This document shows positions 28,105 to 63,492 of a stretch of 64,000 bases of DNA, piece after piece. The stretch is from Omnitrophica bacterium RIFCSPLOWO2_12_FULL_50_11 (GTDB taxonomy: Bacteria > Omnitrophota > Omnitrophia > Omnitrophales > Danuiimicrobiaceae): assembly GCA_001804315.1 (NCBI GenBank), contig MHFT01000050.1, positions 4,600 through 68,599 on the forward strand. Reading direction: 5' to 3'. Under the pieces are notes generated by a model. The model made no database searches. It had not been told where the DNA came from and saw only the letters and a program-made list of their open reading frames with translations. A program made the translations under genes and the position numbers. Each line of letters opens with the position of its first letter. Position 1 is the stretch's first letter.

Positions 28105-28133
28105 TACGCAAGCAACAAAATGGTGGGGGATCA
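28083..28133. repeat. Family-A element (degenerate) overlapping the birA 3' end: GATCATCGCCCACCATT - 18-nt loop - AATGGTGGGGGATCA
   Basis: Loop GATACGCAAGCAACAAAA shares TTGCGTA (as rc) with the other copies. Confidence 0.75.
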
Positions 28134-34992: not shown

Positions 34993-35102
34993 ATTGCATG
35001 GATCGCATCCTCGCAATGACGGCTGCGGTGGGCTTCTCCCTCGGAATGACGGTGCAGTGCAAGGCCGTCGGCTACCGTTTGGCATGCTGGCCTCGCCATG
35101 AC
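34990..35102. repeat. Family-B fragment array: partial GTCATTGC, then three direct copies of the CCTCGCAATGACGG-like terminal motif (35008, 35038, 35091). The last supplies the guaA ATG
   Basis: CCTCGCAATGACGG, CCCTCGGAATGACGG, CCTCGCCATGACAA. Confidence 0.7.
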
Positions 35103-41805: not shown

Positions 41806-41860
41806 CAACGTCATGCGAGGCCAACAACCCAAGCAATGGCCGAAGTAATTGCAACTGCAC

Positions 41861-41954
41861 CGTCATTGCGAGGAAGCGAACCAGGCGAAGACGAAGCAAT
41901 CTCAGAACCTAGATTGCTTCGGCATTGCTTTGGGACTCAGCCTCGCAATGACGG
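41861..41954. repeat. Family-B nested inverted-repeat element: GTCATTGCGAGG ... GAAGCAATCT ... AGATTGCTTC ... CCTCGCAATGACGG
   Basis: Outer 12-13-bp arms at 41861-73/41941-54, inner 10-bp arms at 41893-902/41911-20. Creates a spurious 42-aa N-terminal extension of mtaB in the ORF track. Confidence 0.85.
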
Positions 41955-41961
41955 ATGCGTG

Positions 41962-46342: not shown

Positions 46343-46536
46343 TTTAGTCCGGTTTTCTCATCAATTTGGCGGATTGATGAGAAAACCGCTTTGGACGCAC
46401 GAAGTTGCGTCCAAAGTTTTGCGCCCCTGTCAAAACGGGGCGCAAAAGACAACCCCTGTGGTACAAATGGACAAGCCCATTTGCACCACAGCCTCTTCGA
46501 GGGCATTTCTCATTGGCGATGAGAAATGCGGGTTAG
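46343..46536 (+). repeat. Multi-hairpin element copy 2 (194 bp, five consecutive perfect hairpins), between dnaG and rpoD
   Basis: Same hairpin series as 24018-24271 minus the 59-nt insert. Differences from copy 1 fall in loops (TGTCAAAAC vs TCTCAAAAT). Confidence 0.85.
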
Positions 46537-46542
46537 GATTCT

Positions 46543-48330
46543 ATGAAGAGGGAAAGAAGGTTTAAGAAAATTCGTCAGAAGAAGCGAAACCGGAATGCCA
46601 AAGGCCGAGGTCTGGATTCTCGGCGCGATTCAAAGCATTCGCCGAAATCGAGGCCCTGCTTGGAGAAAGAGACTGTGTCTATCACCAGAAAAGTCCATGG
46701 CCGTACAAGGAAGAAGAAAACACTAGCTTCTGAGGCAGCCAGTTTGAAACGAGGCGGAACCGCTTCTTATCAGGCGGACTTAGATCAGCTTGTCTCGTTA
46801 GGCAAGCGGCAAGGCTATGTCACTTATGAGCAAATCAACAGTGTATTTCCACGCGAAACCACTTCTTCCGAAAGGATCGAGGAAATACTAAACGCACTTT
46901 CTGAGCGGAATATCGAGGTGACGACGAGCCCGATTCAAAAGGGGGCCGGCGTTGAAGAAGAAAGTCAAGTGAAGAAGGAGAGGAAAGAAATAGCTCTACC
47001 TCGTAAAGAATTTCCGATTCAAGAAGAAGAATATGAACGCGCCCGCATGGATGATCCTGTTCGGACCTATTTGCGTCAAATGGGTCAGATTCCGTTGCTG
47101 ACGCGGGAGCAGGAAATCGCGCTCGCGAAGCGCATTGAAGATGAAGAGGCGAAATTGGCGACCACGGTGTTTGAAACGAAAGCGGCACGATATGAGGTGT
47201 TGTGCTTGGCAAATCAAATTGTGAACAATGAGGTCAGCTTAGAATCCATCATTGATGAAGACGAGGCATCCAAACTCCAGTTCACGAAGCGAAAGTTACA
47301 AAGTCTAACGCGCAAGCTTCGTGCGTCGCGCAAAGATGCTGACTTAGTCCCGCTCCTGAAGCAGTTCAATCTGAATGTCGGGATCGTCGAACAAATTATT
47401 GCCAATTTGCGTTCCAAACTCAATGAGCTTAAGCGGAACGAAAAGGCGATCGAGCAACTTAGGAGAACAGAGGTTCGGGGACAGATTGGTGCCCTGATGG
47501 AACGGAACAAAGAAATTCTCAGTCAGATCGGCGAGACGGAAAGTGCGGTTTATGAGCATATGAAGCGGATTCAAAAACGTGAGCGTGAGCTTTCTCGGGC
47601 GAAGAAAGATTTAGTCGCTGCGAATTTGAGGCTCGTGGTGAGCATTGCCAAAAAATACACGAACCGAGGGCTCACGTTCTTGGATTTGATTCAGGAAGGC
47701 AATATCGGTTTGATGAAAGCGGTAGATAAATTCGAATACAAGCGGGGTTACAAATTTTCTACTTATGCGACCTGGTGGATCCGCCAGGCAATTACGCGTT
47801 CGATTGCGGACCAGGCGCGAACGATCCGCATTCCGGTGCACATGATCGAGACGATCAATAAATTTTTCCGTGCGTCGCGACATCTGGTTCAGGAATCGGG
47901 CCGCGAGCCGACTCCGGAAGAAGTGGCGCGTGTGATGAAGATGCCGGTTGAAAAGGTGAAGGGGATCCTGAAAATTGCGCAGGAGCCCATCAGCCTTCAG
48001 ACGCCTGTGGGCGAAGAAGGAGACACGAGCTTTGGCGATTTTATCGAGGACAAAGGCGCCGTTTCTCCAGCGAATGCGACTGCTTATTCCATGCTCAAAG
48101 AGCAGATGGATGAGGTTTTGGACACGATTACAGAGCGCGAGGAAAAAGTTTTGAGGCTTCGGTTCGGGATCGGGGATGGTTACTCACGGACGCTCGAGGA
48201 GGTAGGGAAAATCTTTAATGTTACGCGCGAGCGCGTCCGTCAAATTGAGGCGAAGGCGCTTCGAAAACTAAGGCATCCAACGCGTTCGCGGAAGCTGAAA
48301 AACTTTTTAGACTTGAAGTTCAAGGACTAG
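46543..48330 (+). CDS. rpoD: RNA polymerase primary sigma factor (sigma-70/RpoD) with an unusual basic N-terminal extension. Start uncertain
   Basis: Regions 1.2-4: [92 protein letters not shown]. Confidence 0.9.
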
Positions 48331-49564: not shown

Positions 49565-49638
<74 letters not shown>

Positions 49639-50837: not shown

Positions 50838-51150
50838 AATTTGGTGATGCGCGGTAGGGCTAGGAGATGATCGCTCCCGCCGGATTTGGGCGGGGGAGGA
50901 AAGTCCGGGCTCCATAAGGCAGAGTGCTCCGTAATTCGGAGGCTTACGTCCCGAAAGGGGTGTAAGACGGAAAGTGCCACAGAAAAAAAACAGCTCCTCA
51001 TTTTTTTGGGGGGTCAAGGTGAAACGGCGGTTTAAGAGACCACCGGTCCAACGGCAACTGCGGACGCATGGCAAACCCCACTTGGAGAAAGACTGAATAG
51101 AAGACGATCGGCTTGCCCTTAAAAGACGTCGAGCCAGGGAATAGCCTGTT
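50838..51150 (+). ncRNA. rnpB: RNase P RNA (bacterial type A, compact ~300 nt). Ends are approximate
   Basis: Universal P4 region GGAGGAAAGTCCGGGCTCCATAAGGCAGAGTGC; GGAAAGTGCCACAGAAA; GGTGAAACGGCGGTTTAAGAGACCACC; 3' P4 strand GATCGGCTT. TATAAT -10 at 50815. Confidence 0.8.
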
Positions 51151-51154
51151 CCCT

Positions 51155-51210
51155 GTCCCCCACCACTTTAAGGTGATAATCTTTGGACACACCTTAAAGT
51201 GGTGGGGGAC
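51155..51210. repeat. Family-A hairpin element (GTCCCCCACCACTTTAAGG - 18 nt - CCTTAAAGTGGTGGGGGAC), immediately 3' of rnpB
   Basis: Perfect 19-bp stem, 18-nt loop. Confidence 0.9.
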
Positions 51211-51271
51211 TAAAGTCTTGGGTTAGTCGCATGAGATTTCGTGAGAGCGGAATCCTAGACAGATGATCATC

Positions 51272-51327
51272 GTCCCCCACTACTTTAAGGTTCGTCCCCT
51301 GTGACATTCCTTAAAGTAGTGGGGGAT
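51272..51327. repeat. Family-A hairpin element (GTCCCCCACTACTTTAAGG - 18 nt - CCTTAAAGTAGTGGGGGAT). Carries a compensatory C-to-T / G-to-A pair relative to the copy at 51155
   Basis: Perfect 19-bp stem; CACTAC/GTAGTG here versus CACCAC/GTGGTG in the neighbouring copy. Confidence 0.9.
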
Positions 51328-51423
51328 TACAGAACTCGGCTTAACTTAGCGTTACCGCGCAATCTCCACTTTTGCACAATGTAAACGGGTGCGTGGCACC
51401 AAACTTTTTCTTGGTTTTTGCTG

Positions 51424-51567
51424 TTGACTCTGGCGGTTCTTTGAGGTATTATTACGCTCGTTCGCCTTTTAAACTGGTCCTGTGAGGCCGGAAAAGGTAT
51501 CAAATGAAAATCGAAAGACGAGAAAAGATTAAGATAAGCTCACTCAAATAGTGAGCTATTTTTTTAC
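51424..51567 (+). promoter_or_regulatory. pyr operon leader: promoter TTGACT-17-TATTAT, PyrR-binding loop (AAACTGGTCCTGTGAGGCCGGAAAAGG) and intrinsic attenuator terminator AGCTCACT-CAAAT-AGTGAGCT plus TTTTTTT
   Basis: -35 51424-29, -10 51447-52; GGTCCTGTGAGGCC matches the PyrR box consensus RUCCAGAGAGGCU; terminator at 51537-51567 lies 18 nt before the pyrR ATG. Confidence 0.7.
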
Positions 51568-51584
51568 CTACGAACTGGAACATT

Positions 51585-52139
51585 ATGACACACTCAAGAG
51601 AAATCATTAATTCAGAGGAAATGAACCGTGCGATGGTGAGAATCGCGCACGAGATCCTTGAGAAGAACAAAGGAACAGAAGGACTGGCCTTAATCGGGAT
51701 CCGTACAGGGGGTGCCTATCTGGCAAAGCGGTTTCAAGAGAAAATTCATGCCGTGGAAGGATGTGAGGTTCCGCTTGGGCTCCTCGATATTACGATGTAT
51801 CGCGATGACTTGACTGAAATCGGCCCGCAGCCGAATGTTGGCGAGACCGACATCAGTTTTGATGTGAACGGAAAAAACGTCGTGCTCGTAGATGACGTTT
51901 TGTTTACCGGTCGTACGATTCGATGCGCACTCGACGCCTTAATCGATTTAGGGCGGCCGCGGTCGATACAGCTTGCTGTGCTCGTGGACCGGGGTCACAG
52001 GGAACTGCCGGTCAAACCCGACTATGTGGGAAAAAATATTCCGACCGCAAGACACGAAGAAGTGGTGGTGAAATTTAAAGAGCATGACGGCGAAGATAGC
52101 GTTTGTATCGTTGAGAGGAGCCCCGATGTGGAAGCGTAA
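51585..52139 (+). CDS. pyrR: Pyrimidine operon attenuation regulator / uracil phosphoribosyltransferase PyrR
   Basis: PRTase fold [21 protein letters not shown]-terminal [18 protein letters not shown]. Confidence 0.85.
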
Positions 52140-53085
52140 AGATTTGGTGGGCTTGAGGGATTTGACAGCTGAGGAGATCAATCTCGTTCTCGACACTGCG
52201 AAAGCGTTTCAGGAAATTTCGCTTCGTCCCGTGAAAAAAGTACCGACCCTTCGCGGCCGGACAGTCGCGAATCTTTTTTTTGAGCCGAGTACACGTACAC
52301 GAATTTCATTCGAGCTGGCGGAGAAGCGTTTGAGCGCCGATACGATTAACTTTACGAGCTCAAGTTCGAGTACCGTGAAAGGGGAAACGCTTCGAGATAC
52401 GGTGCTCAATATTGAGTCACTGAAGGTGGATATTATCGTCATGCGTCATTTTGCTTCGGGTGCACCGCATCGGCTCGCTCAAGCACTTCCTGTGAGTGTG
52501 ATCAATGCGGGTGATGGGATGAATGAACATCCAACGCAAGCACTGTTGGACATGTTTACGGTTCGGGAAAAGAAGGGAACGGTTGCCGGAATCAAAATTG
52601 CATTTGTGGGTGATATCTTGCACAGCCGAGTGGCGCGATCTAACGTTTGGGGCTTGACGAAACTTGGCGCACGCGTGACCCTCTGTGGACCTAGGACGCT
52701 TTTACCTAAGGGTGTGGAAACATTCGGCGTTCATGTCACGACTGATCTCGAAGAAGCAATCCATGATGCGGATGTGATCAATTTACTTCGGATTCAAGCG
52801 GAGCGGCAGAGCGAATGTTACTTTCCAAGTATCCGCGAATATGCGAATAACTACCAAATCAACCGCGAGGTGTTAAAGCACGCCAAGCCTGATGTGTTGA
52901 TCATGCATCCAGGCCCTGTCAACCGAGGTGTGGAAGTATCGAGCGATGTGATGGACGGCCCTTATTCGGTCATTCTCGATCAGGTGACGAACGGTCTTGC
53001 CGTGCGAATGGCGGTATTGTATCTCTTAAGCGGCGTCCGGAAAAAGAGGTGGGGAACAGTTCCTGTTTCGCCAAATCAGACATGA
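52124..53085 (+). CDS. pyrB: Aspartate carbamoyltransferase catalytic subunit. Start trimmed to MWKRKDL
   Basis: [15 protein letters not shown] (STRTR), [10 protein letters not shown] (HPxP-like). Confidence 0.85.
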
Positions 53086-54416
53086 ACCTCCTAATTAAAC
53101 AAGTTCATATCATCGATCCGAAAAATGAAGTGGATGGCGTTTTTGATCTTTCGATTGAAAACAGCGTCGTCAGAGAAATCAATAAAGAAATTTCATCACA
53201 AGTAGGCGAAGTGATCGATGCGAAAGGCCTTTATCTGTTTCCTGGTTTGATCGATTTGCACGTTCATTTTCGTGAACCTGGTTATGAGCAGAAGGAAACC
53301 ATTCAAAGCGGCGCAAAAGCTGCTTTAAAAGGCGGATTTGTGGCGGCAGTCACGATGCCGAATACGAATCCACCCTGTGACCACCAAAGCGTCATTGACA
53401 ATATGATCCGAAAAGCGAACGAGGTGCCGTTTTACATTTATCCTGCCGCGACGTTGACGAAAAATCGAGCTGGTGGTGAGCTTTCTGAGATGGCGGATTT
53501 AAGGAAGGCAGGCGCCCGGGCGGTAACCGACGATGGAGATTGGATCAGTGATTCACTTCTGATGCGGCGGGCCATGGAATATGCCTCGATGCTGAATCTT
53601 TTGGTCGTTAGCCATGCTGAAGACAAGCGGCTCACGGCAATGGGGGCCATGAACGAGGGGATCATGTCCACTCAACTGGGTCTCAAAGGCATTCCGAACG
53701 CAAGCGAGGACGTGGCGGTAAGTCGAGACATTTTATTGGCGGAGCTCACGGGCGTACGGCTTCATTTAACTCATATCTCTACAAGAGGAGCGGTCGAGCA
53801 AATTCGACTGGCCAAAAAAAGAAAAATTTCGGTGACAGCTGATGTAACGCCCCATCACTTGACACTCACGGACGAGGCGCTCGCCGGTTACGATACAAAT
53901 TTTAAAATGATGCCGCCGTTAAGGACCGAGGCGGATCGGAAAGCGGTAGTCGACGGGCTCATAGACGGGACGATTGATGCGATTGCCACAGACCATGCGC
54001 CCCACACCGAAGAGGAGAAGATGGCGGAATTTCAAGATGCCCCAGTTGGCGTTACGGGACTGGAAACCGCTCTTGGGGTGGTGCTCACAGAGTTCTACCA
54101 CCGGAAGTTGATGGATCTAAACAGCGTCGTTCGACGGATGTCTGCGAATCCAGCGGAAATTTTGAAATTACCGCCTGGCTTTGGCGAGATCCGTGTTGGG
54201 ACAGAAGCAAACCTCACGCTCGTAGACGTCAATCAAGAATGGACGGTGAAGAAGGAAAACTTCGTTTCCAAGTCACAAAATTCTTGCTTCATCGGTAAGA
54301 AACTGAAAGGAAGAGCAGTTGCAACCATATGTCGCGGGCGGTTATGGCGCTTCGCCACACTGGTTCCTGAGGCGGTCGAGCAAGCACCGTTAAATCAATG
54401 CCGAAAGCAATCTTAG
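53082..54416 (+). CDS. pyrC: Dihydroorotase. Start trimmed to MNLLIKQ
   Basis: [12 protein letters not shown] metal-binding HxH, DHAPH. Confidence 0.85.
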
Positions 54417-55546
54417 GGTTAGAAGACGGGCTTGTCTTTGAAGGGAGTTCCTTTGGTGTGGAAGGGGAAGCCTACGGCGAGGTCGTCTTTAACACCTCGA
54501 TGTCGGGTTACCAGGAAATTTTGACCGACCCTTCCTACAAAGGACAGATTGTAACGATGACAAATCCGCACATCGGTAACTACGGTGTCAACCAAGCCGA
54601 TGTCGAGTCGCGGCGACCTTGGGTGGAAGGTTTTGTCGTGCGGGAACTGAGCTCGGTTGTGAGTAACTGGCGTTCCGAAATGTCACTTCCTGAGTATCTG
54701 GCCAACTGCAAGATCATCGGCATTCAAGGGATCGACACTCGAAAGCTTGTCAAACACCTAAGAGATCATGGCGCGAAGAAAGGGGTGCTTTCCACCGTTG
54801 ATCTCGATTCCAAACGCCTCGTCGTGAAGGCAAAAGATTCTCCCAGTATAGTCGGCATCGATCTTGTGAAAGAAGTGACATGTGAGAAGCCATACGATTT
54901 TCGTGAAACCCTGCCCAGTGAATTTCATTGGCCCGCTAAAGGCATGTCCACCTCTTATGCTGGGCCCAAGCGGCGTGAGCATTTTATCGTTTGTGTGGAT
55001 GGTGGAATCAAATGGAACATGTTACGGAAGCTCAATCAACACAACTTCCGCGTAAGAGTGGTTCCAGCCAATACGACTGCGGAAGATATTTTGGAACTAA
55101 AACCGGAAGGTGTTTTTTATTCAAACGGCCCTGGCGATCCGGAACCCGTAACGTATTTGTGGGGCGAGATGCGTAAGCTGATTGGAAAAATTCCGATTTT
55201 TGGGATTTGTCTTGGCCATCAGATGGTCGGTCTTGCGCTCGGCGGAAGGACATTCAAGTTGAAATTCGGCCACCGGGGCGGCAATCATCCGGTCCTGGAT
55301 TTGAAATCGAAACGGGTAGAAATCACCTCTCAGAACCACGGCTTTTGTGTCGACATGGATTCCCTTCCTAAGGATGAAATCGAGTGTACGCACATCAACT
55401 TAAATGATCAGACTCTTGAAGGCCTTCGACACAAGAAGTATCCCCTTTTTGCCGTTCAGTACCATCCGGAAAATTCTCCAGGACCTCACGATTCAGATTA
55501 TTTGTTCAGTCGTTTTTACGCTATGGTTGACCATGGCGTGTGGTGA
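54398..55546 (+). CDS. carA: Carbamoyl-phosphate synthase small (glutaminase) subunit
   Basis: N-terminal CPSase_sm domain, GATase catalytic Cys in GICLGHQ, HG...HPE. Confidence 0.9.
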   Translation: MPKAILGLEDGLVFEGSSFGVEGEAYGEVVFNTSMSGYQEILTDPSYKGQIVTMTNPHIGNYGVNQADVESRRPWVEGFVVRELSSVVSNWRSEMSLPEYLANCKIIGIQGIDTRKLVKHLRDHGAKKGVLSTVDLDSKRLVVKAKDSPSIVGIDLVKEVTCEKPYDFRETLPSEFHWPAKGMSTSYAGPKRREHFIVCVDGGIKWNMLRKLNQHNFRVRVVPANTTAEDILELKPEGVFYSNGPGDPEPVTYLWGEMRKLIGKIPIFGICLGHQMVGLALGGRTFKLKFGHRGGNHPVLDLKSKRVEITSQNHGFCVDMDSLPKDEIECTHINLNDQTLEGLRHKKYPLFAVQYHPENSPGPHDSDYLFSRFYAMVDHGVW

Positions 55547-55561
55547 AGGAAGCCTCGTTTT

Positions 55562-58500
55562 ATGCCAAAACGGACGGATATTAAGAAAATCCTGATCATT
55601 GGTTCCGGACCCATTATCATTGGGCAGGGGTGTGAGTTTGACTATTCAGGTTCGCAAGCCTGCAAGGCTCTTAGAGAAGAAAGCTATCAAGTTGTGCTCG
55701 TCAATTCAAATCCAGCCACGATCATGACGGATCCCGAAGTTGCTGATCGAACGTACATTGAGCCGATTACGTCCGAAGTGTTAGAGCAAATTATCGAGCG
55801 GGAACGTCCAGACGCGTGCCTCGCGACCATGGGTGGCCAAACCGGTCTCAACACGGCGGTGGAAGCGTATGAAAAAGGGATTTTTGACCGCTATGGCGTA
55901 GAAATGATCGGGGTGAATTATGCAGCCGTGAAGAAGGCAGAGGACCGACACGAGTTCCAACAGGCGATGCAACGTATCGGCCTTGATTTGCCGCGTTCCG
56001 AATGCGCCTATTCGGTGGAGGAAGCGATCGAAGCCGCGAAACGAATCGGTTTTCCCGTCGTCGTACGGCCAAGCTTTACCCTCGGCGGTTCTGGAAGCGG
56101 CATTTGCTTTAATGAGGACAGCCTTCGGCGAGTCGTCCGGCTCGGCCTGGAATACAGCATCGTGCGTGAAGTACTCATTGAAGAATCGGTTTTGGGTTGG
56201 AAAGAATATGAGCTTGAGGTGATGCGAGACTGTAGGGATAATTTTGTCGTCATTTGTTCCATTGAAAATTTCGATCCGATGGGAATTCATACGGGCGATT
56301 CGATTACGGTTGCGCCGGCTCAGACGCTTACCGATAAGGAGTATCAGAGAATGCGGGACGCCGCGCGGAGGGTCATCTCTGAAATCGGGGTGGAGACAGG
56401 CGGTTCGAATATTCAGTTTGCTGTTCATCCGGTGACGGGCCGTATGGTTGTGATTGAAATGAATCCGCGCGTTTCTCGGTCTTCAGCGCTTGCCTCTAAA
56501 GCGACTGGGTTTCCCATCGCAAAATTTGCAGCGAAGCTTGCCGTTGGGATGACCTTGGATGAGATTCCGAATGACATTACGAAATACACGCCCGCCGGTT
56601 TCGAACCGAGTATCGATTACTGCGTCGTCAAGGTTCCTCGATTTGCCTTTGAAAAGTTTGAGGGGGTAGACGACACGCTTTCGACACAGATGAAGTCTGT
56701 GGGAGAAACGATGGCGATCGGCAGGACTTTCAAGGAAGCGCTTCAAAAGGGCCTGCGGGGCCTCGAGATCAGGAGAAGTGGTCTTGGCGGCGACGGCCGT
56801 GACGAAATTTTTGGCGAAGAAATCAGTTCAAAGGAAGCGTTGTTGAAATTGATAGACCGCGCGAAGCAAGATGAACCCCTTCGAGAAAAGATTGCGGAGT
56901 ATCTCCGTATTCCAAAATCGGATCGACCATTTTATATTAAGTACGCCTTTTACGCAGGTCTGACCTCGCAAGAAATATTTGAGCTTACGAAGATCGATCC
57001 ATGGTTTCTGGAGCAGATCAGACAAATCGTCGAGATGGAAAGAGAATTGTTGTCTGTAGGGGCGCACGGCCGTGCGCCCCTACTCCTGCTACGCAAAGCG
57101 AAACAATTCGGCTTCTCCGATCAGCAAATTGCGTTCTACTGGGATCAAACGGAATCTGATATTCGTGCACTTCGCAGAGCGCACGGAATCGAGGCCGTCT
57201 ATAAACTCGTAGATACTTGCGCTGCGGAATTCAAGGCGTACACGCCGTACTTTTATTCGACCTATGAGGAGGAAGACGAGTCCGTTACAAGTGAAAAGAA
57301 AAAAATTATGATCCTCGGAGGAGGTCCCAACCGAATTGGACAAGGGATCGAATTCGACTACTGTTGTGTTCACGCGGCACTTGCGTTAAAAGAACTAGGC
57401 TATGAAACCATTATGGTGAATTCAAACCCCGAGACGGTCAGCACGGATTACGACACATCGGATAAACTTTTTTTTGAGCCGCTCACACTGGAGGACGTTT
57501 TAAACATAGCGGATCGTGAGAAACCGGACGGCCTCGTTGTTCAACTCGGGGGCCAAACCCCGCTTAATCTCTCGAGCGGCTTAGAAGCGGCCGGCCTCAA
57601 GATTTTGGGGACGTCTACGCGGTCGATTTATATGGCGGAGGATCGGAAGCAGTTTCGGGCCCTGCTCGACAAACTCGGAGTCCGGCAGCCAAAAAGCGAA
57701 ACCGTTTTTACAGCGGAGGAAGCCTTTCAGGTTGCTCAAGCCATTGGTTACCCGGTTCTGATCCGGCCTTCTTTTGTCCTAGGTGGGCGTGCGATGGAGA
57801 TTATTTATGATGACGTACAGCTGAAAAAATACATCCGGCATGCGGTAGAAGCAAGCGACAGAAAGCCGGTCCTGATTGACAAGTTTTTAGAAAATGCAAT
57901 AGAGGTGGACGTCGATCTCATTGGAGACGGGAAAAATTTTGTCGTGGGAGGAGTTCTGGAGCACATAGAAGAAGCAGGCGTTCATTCGGGCGATGCGGCG
58001 ATGGCACTTCCTCCGTTTACGCTTTCAAAAAAATTGATTTCCGAGCTCAAGGAAAAAACAAAACAACTCGCGGCTGAACTCGACATCGTCGGCTTAATGA
58101 ATGTCCAATACGCTATTCAAGATGGCGAGATTTATTGTTTGGAGGTAAACCCGCGGGCTTCTCGGACCGTGCCTTTCGTGAGTAAGGCCATTGGTATTCC
58201 ACTCGCGAAACTTGCTGCGAAAGTGATGATCGGCAAAACGCTCAAAGAGCTTGGGTTTACGGAGGAGGTGGTGCCGCGCCATTTTTCGGTCAAAGAGTCT
58301 GTCTTTCCATTTGTGAAGTTTCCCGGTGTGGATATCATCCTGTCACCGGAGATGAAATCAACGGGCGAGGTGATGGCGATTGATGAAGATTTTGACCTCG
58401 CGGTCTACAAATCCCAGCAGGCGGCATACTGCAGCGTTCCTGTTTCAGGGCGGGTGTTTATCAGCGTCAAGGATGAGGACAAAAAAAAGGTGGTTCCGGT

Positions 58501-58879
58501 AGCCCAAGAGCTTTTGCGGCTTGGATACGAGCTTGTGTCGACGCAGGGCACAAGTCGGGTTTTGGAAGCCCACGGTGTAAAAACCGAAGTCGTGAAGAAG
58601 ATTGCTGAAGGGCATCCGAATGTGGCCGACAAAATTCGGGCGAAAGAAATCGGTCTCGTCATTAACACGCCAACCGGTAAGGGGCCGATGTTGGATGAAG
58701 CAAAGATCCGTTCTCTCGCTGTTTCGTTTAACATTCCTTGTATTACGACATTGAACGCAGCCCGCGCCATTGTGCGTGCTGTGAAGTCATTCCGCAAGCG
58801 TGGACTGACTGTCAAGTCACTCCAAGAGTATCACGAATTGAACAGCAACGTCATTGCGAGGACGCAATTCAGGCGATGA
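55562..58879 (+). CDS. carB: Carbamoyl-phosphate synthase large subunit
   Basis: Two ATP-grasp repeats ([21 protein letters not shown] / [22 protein letters not shown]), oligomerisation and MGS-like domains. The last ~10 codons lie inside a family-B repeat. Confidence 0.95.
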
Positions 58880-58942
58880 CGAAGCAATCTTGCATTCTGA
58901 GATTGCTTCGGCAATGCTCCGGTACGCTGCCTCGCAATGACG
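58849..58942. repeat. Family-B nested inverted-repeat element spanning the carB stop and the pyrK ORF-track start
   Basis: GTCATTGCGAGG 58849-61, GAAGCAATCT 58881-90, AGATTGCTTCGG 58899-910, CCTCGCAATGACGG 58929-42. Confidence 0.85.
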
Positions 58943-59731
58943 GACGTGGATGAAAAGGTCATGTATGACGAAACAGTAACGATTCTTGAGAATCAAAAAG
59001 TGAACGCTCAATATTACAAGCTTGTTTTTTCCTCCAAGCGGATTTCCCGGCGCGTTCGAGCTGGTCAATTCGTCAATCTTCAAGTTGAAGACAGTTCAGA
59101 TCCACTGCTCAGAAGGCCGCTGAGTTACTACCGGGTGCGCAGTGAGCGGGTCGAACTTCTGTATGAAGTGTTAGGGCGGGGCACGGCACTCTTAGCGCAA
59201 AAAAAACGAGGTCACAAAGTTAACGTGTTGGGGCCGCTTGGCCACCCTTTTTCACAGACTCTAAACGGGAAGCGCCGCCTCCTCGTGGGCGGCGGTGTTG
59301 GCGTTCCACCCCTTTTGTTTCTTGCAGAGCACGCCGGTAGGGAAAAGCACGCACCGGTTTTTCTGATTGGCTGTAAGTCAAAGGGCGAAGTACTTCCAAA
59401 GCGGGAACTTTCGAATGTGAAGGGAGAAGTTCTCTACGCCACGGAGGATGGTTCCTACGGCCAAAGAGGACTCGTTACCGTTTTGCTTCAAAAGTTGCTT
59501 GAAAAAGGGGATCCCAAATCGTGGTTTATTCAAACGTGTGGTCCCCATGCGATGCTGGCTGCTGTGATGAAGCTGGCGCGTCAATTTGGCGTTGAAGGCG
59601 AAGCTTCCATTGATGAGCGAATGGCTTGTGGTGTCGGTGCCTGTTTGGGATGTGTTGTCGAGACGAGAGAAGGATTTAAAACGAGCTGTGTAGAAGGCCC
59701 GGTATTTTCATTTCGTGATTTGGTAGGATAG
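58937..59731 (+). CDS. pyrK: Dihydroorotate dehydrogenase electron-transfer subunit PyrK. True start possibly MYDETV at 58961
   Basis: FAD/NAD ferredoxin-reductase fold; C-terminal 2Fe-2S cluster motif CGVGACLGCVV. Confidence 0.85.
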   Translation: MTDVDEKVMYDETVTILENQKVNAQYYKLVFSSKRISRRVRAGQFVNLQVEDSSDPLLRRPLSYYRVRSERVELLYEVLGRGTALLAQKKRGHKVNVLGPLGHPFSQTLNGKRRLLVGGGVGVPPLLFLAEHAGREKHAPVFLIGCKSKGEVLPKRELSNVKGEVLYATEDGSYGQRGLVTVLLQKLLEKGDPKSWFIQTCGPHAMLAAVMKLARQFGVEGEASIDERMACGVGACLGCVVETREGFKTSCVEGPVFSFRDLVG

Positions 59732-59771
59732 GAGCAGCAGAAAGGACAAAAAGGTCGTAATTTGGTGGCAT

Positions 59772-60992
59772 ATGAGTAGACGAAGACGAACGCAAAGACG
59801 GTCTCTGAAGAGGCGAAGCCGGCGAAGACCGAAATTGAGACGTCCATACCGTTTCATGAGAAAACGTCTGCGGAAGATAAGACGTGCGGGAACGAGAAGC
59901 TCAACACGGTCGGAACGTGCAATCTCAGTAGGTGTCGAACTTGAAACGTATTCTATCTCAGTGCCTGAGTACCGGATTTCGCGCGAGCTGCATTTCCCCC
60001 GGCGCGGCATTGCAGAGTTGGGTGAGCGCTTTACGAAAGATGCCAGTATTGGAAGCGAGTACAACAGTAGGGTTTTTTATACCGTTCGGGAAGCGTTCTT
60101 CTTACTTAAAAATGGTCTGCGCAAGTACATTCACTACCGATCCTCGCCCGAAGAACATGATTACCGCACTTTGTTTCCCATTGGGGGATGGACAGACCGA
60201 TTTGCAGGCAGCCACATTCACATGGCGCTTGGAAAGAAAAAGTTTGAGTATCGTCGCGCGCGGTTGCTTGCACGGCGCTTGCACAGCCATATTCCGTTTC
60301 TCATTGCCCTCTGCGGAAATTCACCCGTATGGCGCGACCGGATTACTGCGATCAATTCGAATCGATTGCTCCGCGGGACAGAGAAATATTGCAAGGTAAC
60401 AAGACGGGAGCTCTTGTACAAGCACCACTACCGAGAGCTGACGTATAACGAAGGCGGAAAAAGGAAACCGCCGACTTTGGAAATTCGCGTGTTGGACTCA
60501 GGAATTCCCGAATACGTTGTCGCCGCTATTTGCGTTGTGAAAGCGGTCGCCCTTCAGTGGCTCGAGCGAAAACCGAGCTTAAATCATTTGACCCATGAAG
60601 ATTATCTGAGTGCTCGGGATCAGGCGATCCGGTATGGGCCAAAAGCCAAGCTGTTGTGGAACCGTCATGCACTTACGGTTCCTCAATATGTGGACCTTTT
60701 TTTCCGAAAATATGAAGACGAGCTGGACCAGCTGGCCATCCCGGATGACGTCATCGATGTCTTTAAATATCTCAAGAGAGGATGGAATCAGTCGACCGTG
60801 ATCCGCAGAGCAGCCCAGAAGTCCAGATGGCATCATCGTCCGACTTGGGAACGGCGTTTTGCCAAGAGATACGCAGCTGCTATTCGGGCGCTTCTTGACG
60901 GCAACTCCTATACTGAATTTGCAAAAGCCTTGGGGGTACGGCTCCCGAGCATCGAGCGAACGTGGATGGGTCGTAGAGAATCTAAATGGTGA
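59772..60992 (+). CDS. Carboxylate-amine ligase, glutamate-cysteine ligase family 2 (YbdK-like). The ORF carries a 50-aa Arg/Lys-rich N-terminal tail of uncertain reality
   Basis: SVGVELETYSI (cf. YbdK TLGIELEMQVV); SHIHMALG...HSHIPFLIALCGNSPVW (cf. QHVHVGC...VPHFIALSAASPYM); PTLEIRVLDSG (cf. GTVEVRVMDT). Confidence 0.7.
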   Translation: MSRRRRTQRRSLKRRSRRRPKLRRPYRFMRKRLRKIRRAGTRSSTRSERAISVGVELETYSISVPEYRISRELHFPRRGIAELGERFTKDASIGSEYNSRVFYTVREAFFLLKNGLRKYIHYRSSPEEHDYRTLFPIGGWTDRFAGSHIHMALGKKKFEYRRARLLARRLHSHIPFLIALCGNSPVWRDRITAINSNRLLRGTEKYCKVTRRELLYKHHYRELTYNEGGKRKPPTLEIRVLDSGIPEYVVAAICVVKAVALQWLERKPSLNHLTHEDYLSARDQAIRYGPKAKLLWNRHALTVPQYVDLFFRKYEDELDQLAIPDDVIDVFKYLKRGWNQSTVIRRAAQKSRWHHRPTWERRFAKRYAAAIRALLDGNSYTEFAKALGVRLPSIERTWMGRRESKW

Positions 60993-61058
60993 AAAGGCGG
61001 CGTCATTTCTCGGCACTGCGATGAGCGGCCGCATCTGGATGACAGGTAGGCACAACTC

Positions 61059-61787
61059 ATGAAATACTCGAGGCAGACAGGCAAACCGATCATCGGGATC
61101 AGCTGTGAAGTGATCAAGCTGAAACCGTATTATTTTGAGTTTGAACTTGCCTGTGATTACCGCTACATCCGAGCAATCTTACGGGCTGGCGGAATTCCAC
61201 TCATGCTTCCGATTAATCACAATCCAAGGGATGTGATGAAGCTCCTCCGAACGATCGACGGCCTCCTCATTATCGGAGGTGCCGACATTCCGCCGAGTTT
61301 CTATGGCGAGCGGAATCGGCACAAGATCAAGCCGATGTATCGAGGCCGGATCCGATTTGATATGAAGCTCTACCGAATGGCACAGCACTTGAAACTGCCT
61401 ATTCTTTGTATCTGCTACGGGTTGCAGCTCTTGAATGTGATTTACGGCGGCACTCTTTATCAAGATCTTCAAAAGCAGATGCGTCGTGCAAAGAATCACC
61501 AGTCGAGGCGCCATCCGATGCACACCCTTCACCTTGATCAAAGGTCCAAACTCATTAAAATCTTTAGACATCAGCATTTCATGGTACACAGTCAACATCA
61601 TCAGGCCGTCAAGCGCCTCGGCCGTTCGCTCCGGGCGGTCGGTTATTCGCCAGATGGAGTGGTTGAGGCGGTCGAAGGACCGCCTCGAACGCTTGCCGTC
61701 CAGTGGCATCCGGAGCGCCAAGATCGCGATCCGATCCAGAAACGGCTATTTCGTCGATTCGTAGACGAGTGCCGAAAGCGCAAATGA
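61059..61787 (+). CDS. Peptidase C26 / class-I glutamine-amidotransferase-like gamma-glutamyl hydrolase (PuuD family)
   Basis: IIGGADIPPSFYGE, nucleophile Cys in ICYGLQLLN, HSQHHQAVKRLG (PuuD NSxHHQ motif). Stop overlaps the pyrD ATG (ATGA). Confidence 0.75.
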   Translation: MKYSRQTGKPIIGISCEVIKLKPYYFEFELACDYRYIRAILRAGGIPLMLPINHNPRDVMKLLRTIDGLLIIGGADIPPSFYGERNRHKIKPMYRGRIRFDMKLYRMAQHLKLPILCICYGLQLLNVIYGGTLYQDLQKQMRRAKNHQSRRHPMHTLHLDQRSKLIKIFRHQHFMVHSQHHQAVKRLGRSLRAVGYSPDGVVEAVEGPPRTLAVQWHPERQDRDPIQKRLFRRFVDECRKRK

Positions 61788-62731
61788 GACCAGATTTAAC
61801 GACAAAATTTGCAGGTCTCACGTTCAAAAATCCTGTGACCGTTGCCTCGGGAACTTTTGGTTCCAAAGATGAATATGCCGCCTCCGTTGACTATTCCAAA
61901 TTGGGCGCGGTGGTAACGAAGACCGTGACGCTCCAACCGAGGCAAGGCAATCCCATGCCGCGGATTTGGGAAACGCCGTGCGGCATGCTCAATGCAATTG
62001 GGTTACAAAATAAGGGCGTTGACGATTTCATCGAAAACAAGATTCCATACTTTAAGAAAATAAGGACCCATCTGATTGTCAATATTGCAGGTGAGAGTGT
62101 AGATGATTTCGTGGCCCTTGCGCGAAAGTTGGACCGCGTAAAAGGTGTATCGGCGCTCGAACTTAATATTTCTTGCCCCAATGTGAAGCGAGGTCTTGAG
62201 TTTTGCGCAAAGCCTGAACTGGCCCATGAAGTAGTGGCGGCGGTCAAAGGTGCGACGTCACTGCCGTTCTTTACCAAACTTTCGCCTGAAGCAGGCGATT
62301 TTTTGGGTGTCGCCGAAGCAGTGATTCGAGCGGGCAGTCACGCTTTGAGTCTCATCAATACGATCCGAGGGATGGCTGTGGATATTGAAAAACGCCGCCC
62401 CCAGATTGCCAATGTGTGTGGCGGCTTAAGCGGTCCTGCCATTCGGCCGATCGCGCTTCGTTTTCTGTATGAAGTGAAACGTCACTTTGAGATTCCAGTG
62501 ATGGCGATGGGAGGTATCGCTACGGCGCAAGACGCCCTTGAATTTTTGATTACCGGTGCGGATCTTGTTGCACTTGGTACCGTCAATTTTGTTCATCCCA
62601 AGGCGACGATGGAGGTTCTCAAAGGAATCGAAGCCTATCTGAAAAGGAAAGGTCATCCATCGATTGACGATGTTCGGGGTACCCTTCAAGTCAAATCTGA
62701 GTTTGAAAACCACCACGTGCCCGCGGGTTAA
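61784..62731 (+). CDS. pyrD: Dihydroorotate dehydrogenase catalytic subunit (class 1B, PyrD). Start trimmed to MRPDLTTKFAG
   Basis: LTFKNPVTVASGTFG, NISCPN (catalytic Cys), GGI.T..DALEF. Confidence 0.85.
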   Translation: MRPDLTTKFAGLTFKNPVTVASGTFGSKDEYAASVDYSKLGAVVTKTVTLQPRQGNPMPRIWETPCGMLNAIGLQNKGVDDFIENKIPYFKKIRTHLIVNIAGESVDDFVALARKLDRVKGVSALELNISCPNVKRGLEFCAKPELAHEVVAAVKGATSLPFFTKLSPEAGDFLGVAEAVIRAGSHALSLINTIRGMAVDIEKRRPQIANVCGGLSGPAIRPIALRFLYEVKRHFEIPVMAMGGIATAQDALEFLITGADLVALGTVNFVHPKATMEVLKGIEAYLKRKGHPSIDDVRGTLQVKSEFENHHVPAG

Positions 62732-62751: not shown

Positions 62752-63492
62752 ATGGGACGAAAAGACATGCGCGAAAAGAAATCCAATTACAAAGGGCGGA
62801 TCATTGTTGCGCTCGATACGCCGGATCTTGGTTTTGCGAAAAAGCTGGTTCGCATCCTCAAGGACGAGATTAAAATCTTCAAGGTCGGAAGCGAGCTCAT
62901 GACTGCCCATGGTCCGAGAGCGGTCCGGACCGTTCTCGAGTTAGGTGCGGAAGTCTTTTTGGACCTTAAGTTTCATGACATTCCCAATACCGTCGCGCAA
63001 GCAACGCGCGCCGCGGTACGGCTTGGCATTTGCATGCTAAACCTCCACGTAGCGGGGGGCCTTCAAATGATGCAAGAGGCCTGTATTGCTTCTGCAGATG
63101 AGGCACGGAGAAACAATTTAAAGCCGCCCAAACTTCTTGGTGTTACGCTCCTCACGAGCTTAAGCGATGAGGAAGTACACGAGGAAATCGGCCTTCCAAA
63201 ATCGATCAATCGAATTGCCGTTCAATATGCGCAGCTGGCTCAAAAGGCTGGCTTGGACGGCGTCGTCTCCTCTGCGCTGGAAGCAAGAAAGATCAAGACC
63301 CAGTGCGGCCCGAATTTTTTGGTCGTCTCGCCGGGGATTCGGCCGGAATGGGCTGGCCGGGACGATCAGAGGCGCGTTTTGTCACCGCGAGAAGCCTTCG
63401 AGCTTGGCGCGAGTTACATCGTTATCGGTCGTCCGATTACGGAAGCAGACGATCCTGGCAAGGCTATCCGGCAAATTTCAAGAAGTTTGTGA
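62752..63492 (+). CDS. pyrF: Orotidine-5'-phosphate decarboxylase
   Basis: IIVALDTPD, FKVGSEL, DLKFHDIPNTV, GRPI. Confidence 0.85.
   Translation: MGRKDMREKKSNYKGRIIVALDTPDLGFAKKLVRILKDEIKIFKVGSELMTAHGPRAVRTVLELGAEVFLDLKFHDIPNTVAQATRAAVRLGICMLNLHVAGGLQMMQEACIASADEARRNNLKPPKLLGVTLLTSLSDEEVHEEIGLPKSINRIAVQYAQLAQKAGLDGVVSSALEARKIKTQCGPNFLVVSPGIRPEWAGRDDQRRVLSPREAFELGASYIVIGRPITEADDPGKAIRQISRSL

Follow-up and report, generated by a model that had tools for sequence, protein, structure and literature searches.

Several systems are known in which a synthetase and a hydrolase are fused or encoded by adjacent genes, among them glutathionylspermidine synthetase/amidase, cyanophycin synthetase/cyanophycinase, PuuA/PuuD and PafA/Dop, and ligase/hydrolase pairs that work through a glutamyl handle recur in amine catabolism, thiol chemistry, natural-product synthesis and pupylation. 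The superfamily of carboxylate-amine/ammonia ligases with the glutamine synthetase (GS) fold, and the motifs that characterize it, were defined in earlier work which also placed GatB and GatE in the same superfamily as the GCS2-type ligases (PMC2588565). The pairing of a GCS2-sized ligase with a GATase-like thiol peptidase was already noted in 2008 for a different ligase family, the 'new CAL' family (Iyer, Burroughs & Aravind 2008; C. perfringens CJD_1902), whose genes lie beside a GATase-like thiol peptidase or an Aig2-type gamma-glutamyl cyclotransferase (PMC2588565). The pair considered here, a GCS2-like ligase and a C26 hydrolase, had been predicted to represent no described pathway, and we found no description of it in the literature, the similar pairing that is known being that of the other family (PMC2588565).

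The pyr locus and its two inserted genes

The window, a stretch of 64,000 nucleotides from Omnitrophica bacterium RIFCSPLOWO2_12_FULL_50_11, contains a pyrimidine operon whose genes, all on the + strand, run in the order pyrR-pyrB-pyrC-carA-carB-pyrK-[pair]-pyrD-pyrF according to Pfam and NCBIfam. The upstream genes together occupy 51585..58879, with pyrR (51585-52139) assigned by Pfam and pyrB (about 52126-53085), pyrC (about 53082-54416), carA (54398-55546) and carB (55562-58879) taken from the open reading frames and confirmed by their use as tblastn probes, which recover collinear pyr operons elsewhere (in one of these, L081, the Pfam domains are annotated). Ahead of pyrR lies a putative operon leader (51424..51565, +) with a tentative sigma-70-like promoter (51424-51452; 10 of 12 positions match), a tentative, sub-threshold match to the PyrR-binding site (51461-51565; RF00515, 45.6 bits against a gathering score of 54, E=0.001) and a candidate terminator-like hairpin followed by a T-run (51537-51557).

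The inserted segment of 2,052 nt (59732..61783, +) is made up of a 40-nt spacer, the ligase gene, a 66-nt spacer and the C26 gene. It is flanked on the left by pyrK, the dihydroorotate dehydrogenase electron-transfer subunit (58937-59731, +; PF10418; NF000799, 189 bits), and on the right by pyrD, the class 1B dihydroorotate dehydrogenase catalytic subunit (61784..62731, +; NF005574, 386 bits), beyond which pyrF, encoding OMP decarboxylase (62752..63492, +; PF00215, 181 bits), is the last pyr gene in the window. The list of open reading frames places both genes between pyrK and pyrD exactly where the original prediction had put them: a ligase-like ORF (LIG; 59772-60992, +) of 406 aa, and a Peptidase_C26, or class-I GATase-type thiol hydrolase (61059-61787, +), of 242 aa. 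The junction sequence likewise contains the expected ATGA at 61784-61787, in which the TGA of the C26 gene overlaps the ATG of pyrD. No terminator-like site was found on the + strand between 58454 and 62282, and here the pair probably shares a transcript with the pyr genes, downstream of the PyrR-like leader. One positional detail has to be corrected, as a 'family-B repeat' had been described directly before the ligase gene. This is probably the palindromic repeat element (CGTCATTGCGAGG...CCTCGCAATGACGG; 58841..58948, no strand assigned; repeat families D4, D5 and D7) that has further copies at 41853-41959 and 34999-35027, and it is actually ~830 nt upstream of the ligase gene, between carB and pyrK.

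Families, folds and charge of the two proteins

The core of the first protein (59916..60992, +) appears, from its structural model and from fold and profile matches, to be the catalytic core of a divergent GCS2-superfamily carboxylate-amine ligase. It scores 14.1 bits against the GCS2 profile PF04107 (cut-off 21), the full ORF having no Pfam match at E<0.01, and 35.5 bits against the NCBIfam YbdK model TIGR02050 (cut-off 176.4; the YbdK family comprises TIGR02050 and PRK13515-13518). The family to which it belongs straddles the edge of the GCS2 model, since 80 of 81 members touch PF04107 at E<=1, the best at 5.8e-10, and it is set apart by a score gap, with members at 234 bits or above and everything else at 71 bits or below. 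When the family was aligned by hhalign with a GCS2 comparison set (31 of whose 33 members match PF04107, best 1.3e-58), homology extended over 295 columns with 99.9% probability (E=9e-33, 18% identity). The AlphaFold2 model (pLDDT 90.4, pTM 0.92; residue numbering offset by 48 from the full ORF) finds YbdK as its best match in Foldseek (1tt4/1r8g, E about 2e-12, TM 0.63-0.69), followed by Dop/PafA, at ranks 4-10, and gamma-GCS. GS-fold ligases (YbdK, Dop/PafA, gamma-GCS, GshF and GS) make up all of the top 50 matches, 84 matches reach E<=0.001, and the GS structures themselves match more weakly than YbdK (E about 1e-5, TM about 0.4). No Gln-synt Pfam match was found in the ligase, and the Amidoligase_2 profile (PF12224) is touched by a single one of the 81 family members, at E=0.11. 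The original assignment to the YbdK family thus holds at the level of the superfamily, where hhalign and the best fold match agree, and fails at the curated YbdK and GCS2 thresholds (35 bits against GCL and YbdK equivalog cut-offs of 176-425). No curated model captures this ligase family, and no member of it has been studied.

The GCS2 catalytic residues, on which the original prediction was staked, are kept on alignment and are invariant across the family, the positions concerned being G54/E56/E58, D90, E96, H148/H150, R198 and E237/R239/D242 in 29 sequences. The GhExE motif of core strand 1, at the Mg2+/ATP site, appears as G54-V-E56-L-E58, and in the model this GVELE stretch belongs to predicted strand 4-15; in the alignment its counterpart in the GCS2 set is GxEWE. 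D90 and E96 lie on predicted strands 38-42 and 46-50 (model numbering), with E96 aligned to the conserved LE of GCS2. The [HD]x[NH] motif of core strand 4 is represented by H148-x-H150, matched in the alignments by GxHxH in both YbdK and the GCS2 set, and the Ex[RK]xxD motif of core strand 6 by E237-I-R239-V-L-D242, which aligns to TVEVRVMD of YbdK. R198 is the loop Arg before strand 5 and aligns to the corresponding Arg of YbdK and GCS2; R221, at the expected strand-5 Arg position, varies within the family, and the adjoining E222 is invariant. Profiles and model together indicate that the ligase is a full-length, divergent GCS2-superfamily enzyme whose predicted catalytic motifs are intact.

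The second protein matches PF07722 over profile positions 1-219 of 219 at 196.8 bits (cut-off 20.5), compared with 58 bits for the generic GATase profile. Both motifs originally read in it, ICYGLQ with the nucleophile C119 and HSQHHQ, are present, and at least 97% of the 67 partner C26 sequences retain the triad C119, H217 and E219; a Cys-His-Glu triad is completely conserved in C26 enzymes (PMC12958103). Its PDB matches include Lin1909 (3fij, 6e-41), the M. smegmatis GATase series and PuuD (6vtv, 2e-24). The closest solved relatives are stand-alone C26 enzymes, and second to them comes the 7d4r/7d50/7d53 series, whose members are reported to act as glutaminases on free Gln. The P1 gamma-Glu pocket (S1 pocket) is common to C26 enzymes and glutaminases, and a C26 enzyme that degrades glutathione has been documented (PMC12958103). 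Two more specific assignments were rejected: the protein is not a PuuD orthologue (equivalog NF008471, 89.9 bits against 266), being a member of the family only, nor is it a TrpG/PabA-type subunit (NF005849, 17.5 against 308; NF005367, 16.4 against 265; NF010081, 28.5 against 645). The earlier distinction between a true Peptidase_C26 and an anthranilate or PABA glutaminase subunit is therefore upheld, at 197 bits for PF07722 against 17-28 bits for the anthranilate/PABA models. As judged from its sequence, it is a canonical Peptidase_C26 with the Cys-His-Glu triad intact.

The ligase does begin, as had been pointed out, with an Arg/Lys-rich stretch: from the first ATG, 23 of the first 40 residues (57%) are R or K, and the lineage-specific tail as a whole has 48 residues (59772..59915, +). 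It is probably translated, because GGTGG sits 4 nt before that ATG and because P0002, a 77% identical homologue, also starts with MSRRRR, at an ATG overlapping the pyrK stop; the NCBI annotation puts the ligase start at M29 (P0001, 378 aa). Tails of variable length are found in P0002, P0011 and P0018, that of P0018 having about 110 aa, and P0120 carries one at its C-terminus. Pure R/K tails of 48 to about 130 residues occur at either end of the ligase in several lineages. RpoD in the same window also carries an R/K tail, and such tails may therefore be a genomic habit in this lineage. The median pI is 9.98 for the ligase core and 9.8 for the C26 partners, while that of distant GCS2 relatives is 6.11 and that of neighbouring genes in Nitrospirota 6.75. 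Eight residues (R71, R106, R117, K118, R143, K232, R282 and K335) are invariant in the ligase family and not in the GCS2 set. The basic charge of both proteins (pI about 10) fits an anionic substrate better than polyamines, and the acceptor is probably anionic.

Distribution of the pair and its place in pyr

Of 77 testable species-level ligase loci, 68 have the C26 gene immediately downstream of the ligase gene and in the same orientation, and no C26 gene is adjacent in the other nine. The pair occurs in at least seven phyla, among them Omnitrophota, Nitrospirota, Planctomycetota, Elusimicrobia and Acidobacteriota, and since adjacency is this widespread the pairing came through all of the tests that the original prediction had set for itself. 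The gap between the genes has a median of about 5 nt, with many stop/start overlaps, and ligase and partner identities fall in step (76/72%, 66/64%, 60/58%, 50/41% and 48/38%). Across 80 loci we found no third conserved gene, the neighbours being mixed housekeeping genes, and the flanks differ both between and within phyla. Nor, across the same 80 loci, does any enzyme that would transform a glutamylated intermediate, such as an oxidase or dehydrogenase, travel with the pair. Neither a conserved small ORF nor a conserved target gene was found beside it, Pup-like ORFs are absent, and gshB is not consistently near. The ligase and C26 genes are a real unit, and probably a self-contained one. Individual loci have neighbours of their own: a transglutaminase-like gene is upstream of the pair in two Phycisphaerae loci, and a GSH-S/RimK-type gene lies 7 kb upstream in one relative.

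The pair occupies the pyrK-pyrD junction in this window and in L002, L003, L081, L082 and L091. L002 and L003 are genome loci, two of the 80 that carry the ligase, and the other three are metagenome contigs; the remaining 78 genome loci lie outside a pyr context. In nine equally close relatives (L086-L090, L092, L094, L095 and L097) the pyr operon is complete and pyrK is directly followed by pyrD, and for homologues at 69-73% identity the pair is found in three unrelated contexts, from which it follows that the pair was inserted into pyr recently. Of the two explanations originally offered for the placement, recent insertion is thus the correct one, and co-regulation with glutamine and carbamoyl-phosphate metabolism does not hold as a general functional link, the pyr context being lineage-specific. 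The placement is most probably a positional accident with no general tie to pyrimidine synthesis. Unrelated palindromic inserts are also taken up at the pyrK-pyrD junction. The pyr copy is a clean, natural case of a two-gene cassette entering a compact biosynthetic operon, and relatives with the empty site can be compared with it. Overall, the original interpretation is supported in part.

Possible functions and known counterparts

The explanation that we favour, tentatively and with real reserve, is that the pair is a self-contained module which makes and breaks a gamma-glutamyl amide on an anionic acceptor. With ATP and Mg2+, the ligase would turn a carboxylate into its acyl phosphate and couple this to an amine acceptor. 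The carboxylate would most likely be the gamma-carboxylate of glutamate, which we infer only because GCS1, GCS2, GS and PafA relatives behave in this way, identity to YbdK being about 15%. With its Cys-His-Glu triad, the C26 protein would cut the same gamma-glutamyl-N bond and release glutamate, so that the two enzymes together would set the level of the conjugate. Rather than a polyamine, the acceptor would be, for example, a metabolite rich in phosphate or carboxylate groups, a nucleotide-like compound or an oligo-gamma-glutamyl chain. In the present Omnitrophota lineage the pair was inserted between pyrK and pyrD and would now be transcribed together with the pyr genes. Several observations stand against it: a ligase and a hydrolase acting on the same bond, tightly co-expressed and with no enzyme to process the intermediate, would run a futile cycle if neither is regulated; a gamma-glutamyl-X hydrolase and a glutaminase are not distinguishable by sequence; the second-best solved C26 relatives are reported as glutaminases on free Gln; and nine of the 77 loci have no adjacent C26 gene.

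The futile cycle would be avoided if the pair were instead a two-subunit glutamine-dependent amidoligase, in which the C26 protein acts as a glutaminase (Gln to Glu + NH3) and the GCS2-fold synthetase uses the ammonia to amidate an ATP-activated carboxylate, in the manner of GatA/GatB, GatD/GatE and MurT/GatD. A two-gene module with nothing else conserved and with frequent stop/start overlaps suits a 1:1 complex, and the 7d4r/7d50/7d53 relatives and the S1 pocket shared with glutaminases point the same way, as does the precedent of GatB/GatE for glutaminase partners of GS-fold ligases (PMC2588565). We nevertheless regard this as less likely, though as a serious competitor and the most credible of the alternatives, as the C26 protein is a canonical PF07722 member (197 bits) with no unusual conserved features, no ligase-C26 fusion was found among 1.84 billion representatives, characterized GCS-type ligases take amino-acid amines and not ammonia, and at nine loci no C26 gene is adjacent. 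To our knowledge, the characterized PF07722 enzymes also act alone.

It is tempting to speculate that the pair might reversibly modify a polyanionic macromolecule or polymer, the ligase adding glutamate or another carboxylate to RNA or to ribosome-associated or protein-bound amines, or building oligo- or poly-gamma-glutamyl chains, and the C26 protein removing what was added. Both proteins have a pI of about 10 irrespective of the proteome of the host, which distant GCS2 relatives do not; the pure R/K tails recur at either end in several lineages; Dop and PafA, which rank high in the fold search, act on proteins; poly-gamma-glutamyl tails are what the founding C26 enzyme cleaves; and there is the transglutaminase-like gene of the two Phycisphaerae loci. 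We consider this distinctly improbable all the same, because no conserved small ORF or target gene accompanies the pair, basic charge is an indirect sign for which a small anionic substrate or an association with membranes would account just as well, the ligase, at 358 aa, is without the extra domains of PafA, and the tail on RpoD suggests that tails may be a habit of the genome.

Doubtful too, and placed after it, is a role in thiol homeostasis, in which a divergent gamma-glutamylcysteine ligase would be coupled to a gamma-glutamyl peptidase which, in the way of plant GGP1, breaks down gamma-Glu-Cys or glutathione. The closest ligase family is GCS2/YbdK, YbdK reportedly has weak gamma-glutamylcysteine ligase activity, and some sources name the homologues glutamate-cysteine ligase family proteins. 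A glutathione-degrading C26 enzyme is documented (PMC12958103), and one relative has the GSH-S/RimK-type gene upstream. However, the ligase falls far short of the GCL and YbdK cut-offs and its family is set apart by the score gap, a Cys acceptor would not call for eight additional invariant basic residues or for a pI of 10, and gshB is not consistently nearby. Lower again we would rank the proposal that the pair is an unrecognized reversible glutamylation system, with the GCS2-fold enzyme as writer, the C26 thiol hydrolase as eraser and a polyanionic target, whether RNA, a ribosome-associated component or an oligo- or poly-gamma-glutamyl chain on a cofactor or protein, which would explain both the pI of about 10 in every phylum and the added Arg/Lys tails. 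That the pair directly serves pyrimidine or carbamoyl-phosphate metabolism, and is found in pyr for that reason, is very improbable, for although it is probably co-transcribed behind a PyrR-like leader, with its stop overlapping the pyrD start, and is similarly arranged in five further loci, the comparative data largely refute it: no pyr association is conserved across lineages, close homologues and most loci lie elsewhere, nine relatives have an empty junction, and the junction receives unrelated inserts as well.

Many host phyla of the pair (Omnitrophota, Nitrospirota, Elusimicrobia, Phycisphaerae) are poorly cultured, and identification of the substrate would give a function to a widespread 'hypothetical' gene pair of nitrite oxidizers and candidate phyla. 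Depending on the outcome, a gamma-glutamyl conjugate not described before, a split amidotransferase of a new type or a novel modification of macromolecules could be added to those known.

The make-and-break module that we prefer has counterparts that differ from it in instructive ways. YbdK/GCS2 (PF04107; PDB 1R8G, 1TT4) shares the GS-type fold, as the best structural match (TM 0.63-0.69), full-length profile-profile homology at 99.9% probability, a size of about 360-370 aa, and aligned GhExE, HxH, NSP, loop-Arg and ExRxxD motifs, and differs in identity (about 15%), in the position of the ligase below the Pfam and NCBIfam cut-offs and beyond a score gap, in pI (about 10 for the ligase against about 6), in the extra invariant Arg/Lys and in the obligate-looking C26 partner gene. 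PuuA/PuuD and the gamma-glutamyl-polyamine, -anilide, -isopropylamide and -naphthylamide systems also place an ATP-dependent gamma-glutamyl-amide ligase beside a C26 hydrolase, and PuuD is homologous to the C26 partner (6vtv, 2e-24), although the latter is not a PuuD equivalog (89.9 bits against 266). In those systems, however, the ligase is GlnA-like rather than GCS2-like, the clusters include enzymes that transform the glutamylated intermediate, and the substrates are cationic or neutral amines, whereas the proteins here are strongly basic. The polyamine analogy drawn in the original prediction is accordingly a poor fit, because both proteins have a pI of about 10 and no oxidase or dehydrogenase gene accompanies the pair.

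The 'new CAL' ligases belong to a different family: PF12224, which we take to correspond to them, is touched by one of 81 members of the present family and GCS2 by 80, and they range over proteobacteria and firmicutes whereas the pair here is found in Omnitrophota, Nitrospirota, PVC and Acidobacteriota. GatA/GatB, GatD/GatE and MurT/GatD resemble it in having two adjacent, often overlapping genes for a carboxylate-activating ATP subunit and a glutamine-hydrolysing subunit, but their glutaminases are an amidase, an asparaginase-like protein and a CobQ-type GATase, and GatB and GatE are absent from the top Foldseek matches of the ligase model. PafA/Dop, finally, is a ligase/hydrolase duo of GS-type fold that acts on a gamma-glutamyl amide, but there both enzymes have the GS fold and about 450-500 aa and are encoded beside Pup and proteasome genes, whereas the hydrolase here is a C26 thiol enzyme.

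The ligase, its C26 partner and their distribution

Between pyrK and pyrD lie two + strand open reading frames, one for a ligase-like protein of 406 aa (59772-60992) and the other for a C26 protein of 242 aa (61059-61787), and an ORF scan together with Pfam and NCBIfam models places both exactly where the original prediction had them. Its assignment of the first to YbdK/GCS2 stood as to fold and lineage, but the protein falls short of curated thresholds: the core scores 14.1 bits against PF04107 (cut-off 21) and the protein 35.5 bits against the YbdK model TIGR02050 (cut-off 176.4), the latter spanning ~55 residues. The full ORF has no match in Pfam at E<0.01, its sequence has none in the PDB at E<=1, and the family profile matches YbdK only at E=0.008. 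An AlphaFold2 model built with 81 homologues (pLDDT 90.4, pTM 0.92), on the other hand, finds its best structural matches in YbdK (1tt4/1r8g; ~E=2e-12, TM 0.63-0.69, ~15% identity), followed by Dop/PafA, gamma-GCS and GshF and, more weakly, by glutamine synthetases, and hhalign aligns the family over 295 columns with 33 GCS2 proteins (31 of which match PF04107, at best at 1.3e-58) with 99.9% probability and E=9e-33. The defining motifs of the ligase superfamily have been catalogued (PMC2588565), and the GCS2 catalytic residues are retained: GhExE (G54, E56, E58), the strand-2/3 acids (D90, E96), HxH (H148, H150), the loop Arg R198 and ExRxxD (E237, R239, D242) are invariant in the family alignment, and the strand-5 Arg is the sole motif residue that is not fixed. 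Sequence and model comparison clearly place this protein among the GS-fold carboxylate-amine ligases of the GCS2 lineage.

The ligase family is compact and isolated: in a search of 1.84 billion representatives, roughly a dozen full-length clusters reach 234 bits or more, after which scores fall to 71 bits or less. Below this gap are unannotated longer proteins, some with GNAT fusions, and fringe GCS2 members. The nearest outgroups, at 57-71 bits, are the proteins P0159 (529 aa), P0173 (749 aa), P0157 (809 aa), P0160, P0163 and P0164, in which the ligase part has no Pfam match and two of which have C-terminal GNAT acetyltransferase domains; the GNAT-bearing longer proteins may mark another, uncharacterised amidoligase family. 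Amidoligase_2 was ruled out as the identity of the family here, as one of 81 members matches it, at E=0.11.

The C26 protein is canonical for its family, matching the whole of PF07722 at 196.8 bits (58 bits for the generic GATase model), with the triad C119/H217/E219 kept in 97% or more of the 67 partners compared. By NCBIfam models it does not group with TrpG/PabA-type subunits, and it remains below the PuuD equivalog level (89.9 bits vs 266). Its best solved relative is Lin1909 (3fij, 6e-41), followed by 7d4r/7d50/7d53 (~1e-25) and PuuD (6vtv, 2e-24). The 7d4r/7d50/7d53 entries were considered as SpuA, which was rejected as they form a 'Probable glutamine amidotransferase' series (M. smegmatis GATase), so that the nearest solved relatives can less readily all be counted as gamma-glutamyl-amine hydrolases. 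Since the 7d5x-series enzyme is reported to act as a glutaminase on free Gln, and the P1 gamma-Glu pocket is common to C26 hydrolases and glutaminases (PMC12958103), cleavage of gamma-glutamyl-X and of glutamine by the C26 protein are not separable from sequence alone.

Ligase and C26 gene form a conserved unit well beyond the window. With each species represented by one genome, a scan for the ligase turned up 89 relatives; 80 of these loci were retained, in Omnitrophota at 56-76% identity, in about 35 Nitrospirota at 47-51%, and further in Elusimicrobia, Planctomycetota/Phycisphaerae, Acidobacteriota, Thermodesulfobacteriota and Myxococcota. At 68 of the 77 loci with sufficient sequence, in several phyla, a C26 homologue lies directly 3' of the ligase on the same strand, at an estimated median gap of ~5 nt and commonly with an overlap, and partner identity declines in parallel with ligase identity. 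In the nine ligase loci with no adjacent C26 gene, no substitute hydrolase (GGCT or other glutaminase) was found. When 1,194 ORFs from the 80 loci were clustered all against all, no conserved third gene emerged, only phylum-local synteny, including dxs, NAD kinase and gltX with a HIT-family gene, or else an MFS transporter, in Omnitrophota; MTHFR, an ABC ATPase, and a histidine kinase plus NtrC-type regulator in Nitrospirota; and FTHFS, transglutaminase-like, S58 peptidase, Ddl-like, GlgB/GlgP and protein kinase genes in other phyla. A folate link, raised by MTHFR near the Nitrospirota pairs and by FTHFS beside the ligase at two Planctomycetota loci, was rejected as too lineage-restricted; C26 is also absent from the FTHFS loci. 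The pair is unlikely to have come from a defence system or a phage, as neither protein matches PADLOC and the ligase has no PHROG match; the C26 protein matches only a generic phage GATase family there.

Some individual loci merit mention. Two ligase homologues 46-53% identical and without an adjacent C26 gene (L026, 9839-10891; L050, 3204-4232) lie on contigs binned as archaea, Woesearchaeota and Nitrososphaeria, and either horizontal transfer or mis-binning could account for this. Two Phycisphaerae genomes have a transglutaminase-like (PF01841) gene, for a protein of ~515-554 aa, directly 5' of the pair on the same strand (L041:8066-9730; L076:8139-9686); transglutaminase-like peptidases are known companions of amidoligases. 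On the contig that carries homologue P0011 (L084:655-1788 and upstream), a gene of the MATCAP family and one for a GSH-S/RimK-type ATP-grasp ligase lie ~7 kb 5' of the pair; next come genes encoding glutamate dehydrogenase, a TPP enzyme, aldehyde dehydrogenase and malic enzyme.

The pair within the pyr operon

The operon runs pyrR, pyrB, pyrC, carA, carB, pyrK, the pair, pyrD and pyrF (Pfam and NCBIfam). From the pyrK stop (pyrK, 58937-59731, +) a spacer of 40 nt, with GGTGG at its end 4 nt 5' of the ATG at 59772, leads to the ligase; 66 nt separate the ligase from the C26 gene, which shares its reading frame and whose predicted overlap with pyrD is real, the ATGA at 61784-61787 being common to both. 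No terminator-like hairpin was found on the + strand between 58454 and 62282. Directly 5' of pyrR, a promoter-like site (51424-51452, +) opens a leader (51424-51565, +) with a sub-threshold match to the PyrR-binding site (RF00515, 45.6 bits vs a gathering score of 54, E=0.001), accompanied by a terminator-like hairpin and T-run; the arrangement suggests that PyrR attenuation operates in an Omnitrophota genome. Because of the short spacers, the ATGA overlap, the lack of a + strand terminator in that interval and the promoter/PyrR-like leader, the pair and the pyr genes are likely co-transcribed in this genome. Just 5' of the leader is a full-length gene for class A RNase P RNA (50855-51358, +; RF00010, 228.5 bits), and a tRNA-Met (CAT) gene is at 49565-49638.

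The pyr placement reflects a lineage-specific insertion, one of the two explanations originally offered. Of the 80 genome loci, only L002 and L003 have a pyr context, with further copies on L081/L082 (contigs of P0002, a close homologue of the window ligase) and at the metagenome locus L091; homologues 69-73% identical are found in three unrelated gene contexts, and a neighbour-joining tree groups the window ligase with L003 and P0002. A metagenome scan with PyrK identified nine relatives whose pyrK and pyrD genes abut or overlap (TAGATG, TAATG), and the pyr proteins of these pair-less relatives are as near to those of the window as are those of filled loci. On this comparison, with empty and filled junctions in equally close relatives, the 2,052-nt segment 59732-61783 is a polymorphic insertion, and the placement of the pair in pyr is incidental. 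With GC at 0.50-0.53 throughout, nothing in the base composition marks the insert as foreign; given also that the pair is native to the phylum, the insertion is most simply explained by relocation within the lineage. Three of the nine pair-less relatives have unrelated palindromic inserts of 130-360 nt, with long inverted repeats, at the pyrK-pyrD junction (L092:6765-6923; L095:6759-7119; L097:6765-6895), which has therefore taken up different insertions repeatedly.

The family-B repeat that had been placed directly before the ligase is probably a palindromic repeat that lies instead between carB and pyrK (58841-58948). It belongs to an intergenic family, CGTCATTGCGAGG...CCTCGCAATGACGG, with further copies at 41853-41959 and 34999-35027; a second, GGGGATGATCCCCCACCA...TGGTGGGGGAT, occurs intergenically at 2227-2275, 7061-7109 and 28083-28131, and both resemble REP or terminator-like elements. 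Elsewhere an intergenic chain of hairpin modules is duplicated at 98-100% identity (24018-24271 and 46343-46536), copy 1 having ~60 nt extra (two more hairpins) and copy 2 stopping 7 nt 5' of the rpoD ORF; it has no credible match in Rfam.

Basic charge

Both proteins are strongly basic wherever they occur: the median pI is 9.98 for the ligase core (range 9.58-10.87) and 9.8 for the C26 partners, against 6.11 for distant GCS2 relatives. At the Nitrospirota loci the two medians are 10.07 and 9.85, whereas that of the remaining ORFs is 6.75, and 6% of those ORFs reach 9.5 or more. Eight basic residues (R71, R106, R117, K118, R143, K232, R282 and K335) are invariant in the family and not conserved in the GCS2 set. 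Pure R/K tails are present at the N-terminus of the window ligase (48 residues, where 50 had been predicted), at the N-terminus of homologue P0018 (~110) and at the C-terminus of P0120 (~130). That of the window is probably translated, because its MSRRRR start is common to P0002, whose ATG overlaps the pyrK stop. The RpoD-like sigma factor (46543-48330, +) also has an Arg/Lys-rich N-terminal extension (R/K making up 45% of its first 40 residues). With a median pI of 9.2 for the crude ORF set of the window, a basic proteome and basic tails may be characteristic of the lineage. The charge of the two proteins points to an anionic substrate or partner, with which the proposed polyamine analogy to PuuA/PuuD fits poorly.

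Possible roles and known systems

The reading we favor, tentatively and at somewhat less than even odds, is that the pair is a self-contained make-and-break module for a conjugate with an anionic acceptor. To the observed fold, intact catalytic residues, adjacency and charge it adds a carboxylate, an acceptor and a shared bond that we infer: the ligase would form a gamma-glutamyl-type amide via an acyl phosphate, the C26 enzyme would hydrolyse the gamma-glutamyl-N bond, and jointly they would set the level of the conjugate. About half as probable is a split glutamine-dependent amidoligase, which has precedents in GatA/GatB, GatD/GatE and MurT/GatD and would pose no futile-cycle problem. It is rather unlikely that the pair is a writer/eraser system acting on a polyanionic macromolecule or polymer, and marginally less likely still that it carries out ordinary gamma-Glu-Cys synthesis and degradation. 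A direct role in pyrimidine metabolism is very improbable, being largely refuted by the comparative data.

Relative to known systems, we rate the pair as an uncharacterised module of wide conservation, its ligase representing an apparently undescribed GCS2-like clade. The window is from an Omnitrophota MAG, and entries from Omnitrophica bacterium RIFCSPLOWO2_12_FULL_50_11 match both proteins at 100% identity. In public annotations the proteins appear as 'hypothetical protein', 'glutamate-cysteine ligase family protein' and 'gamma-glutamyl-gamma-aminobutyrate hydrolase family protein', and a literature search found no paper on this ligase family or on the ligase-C26 pairing, in keeping with the prediction that the pairing was undescribed. 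Pairs of a GlnA-type ligase and a C26 hydrolase are well known, PuuA/PuuD and its relatives among them. The 2008 survey of the superfamily reported a GCS2-sized 'new CAL' ligase beside a GATase-like thiol peptidase, in which the ligase is of a different family (PMC2588565).
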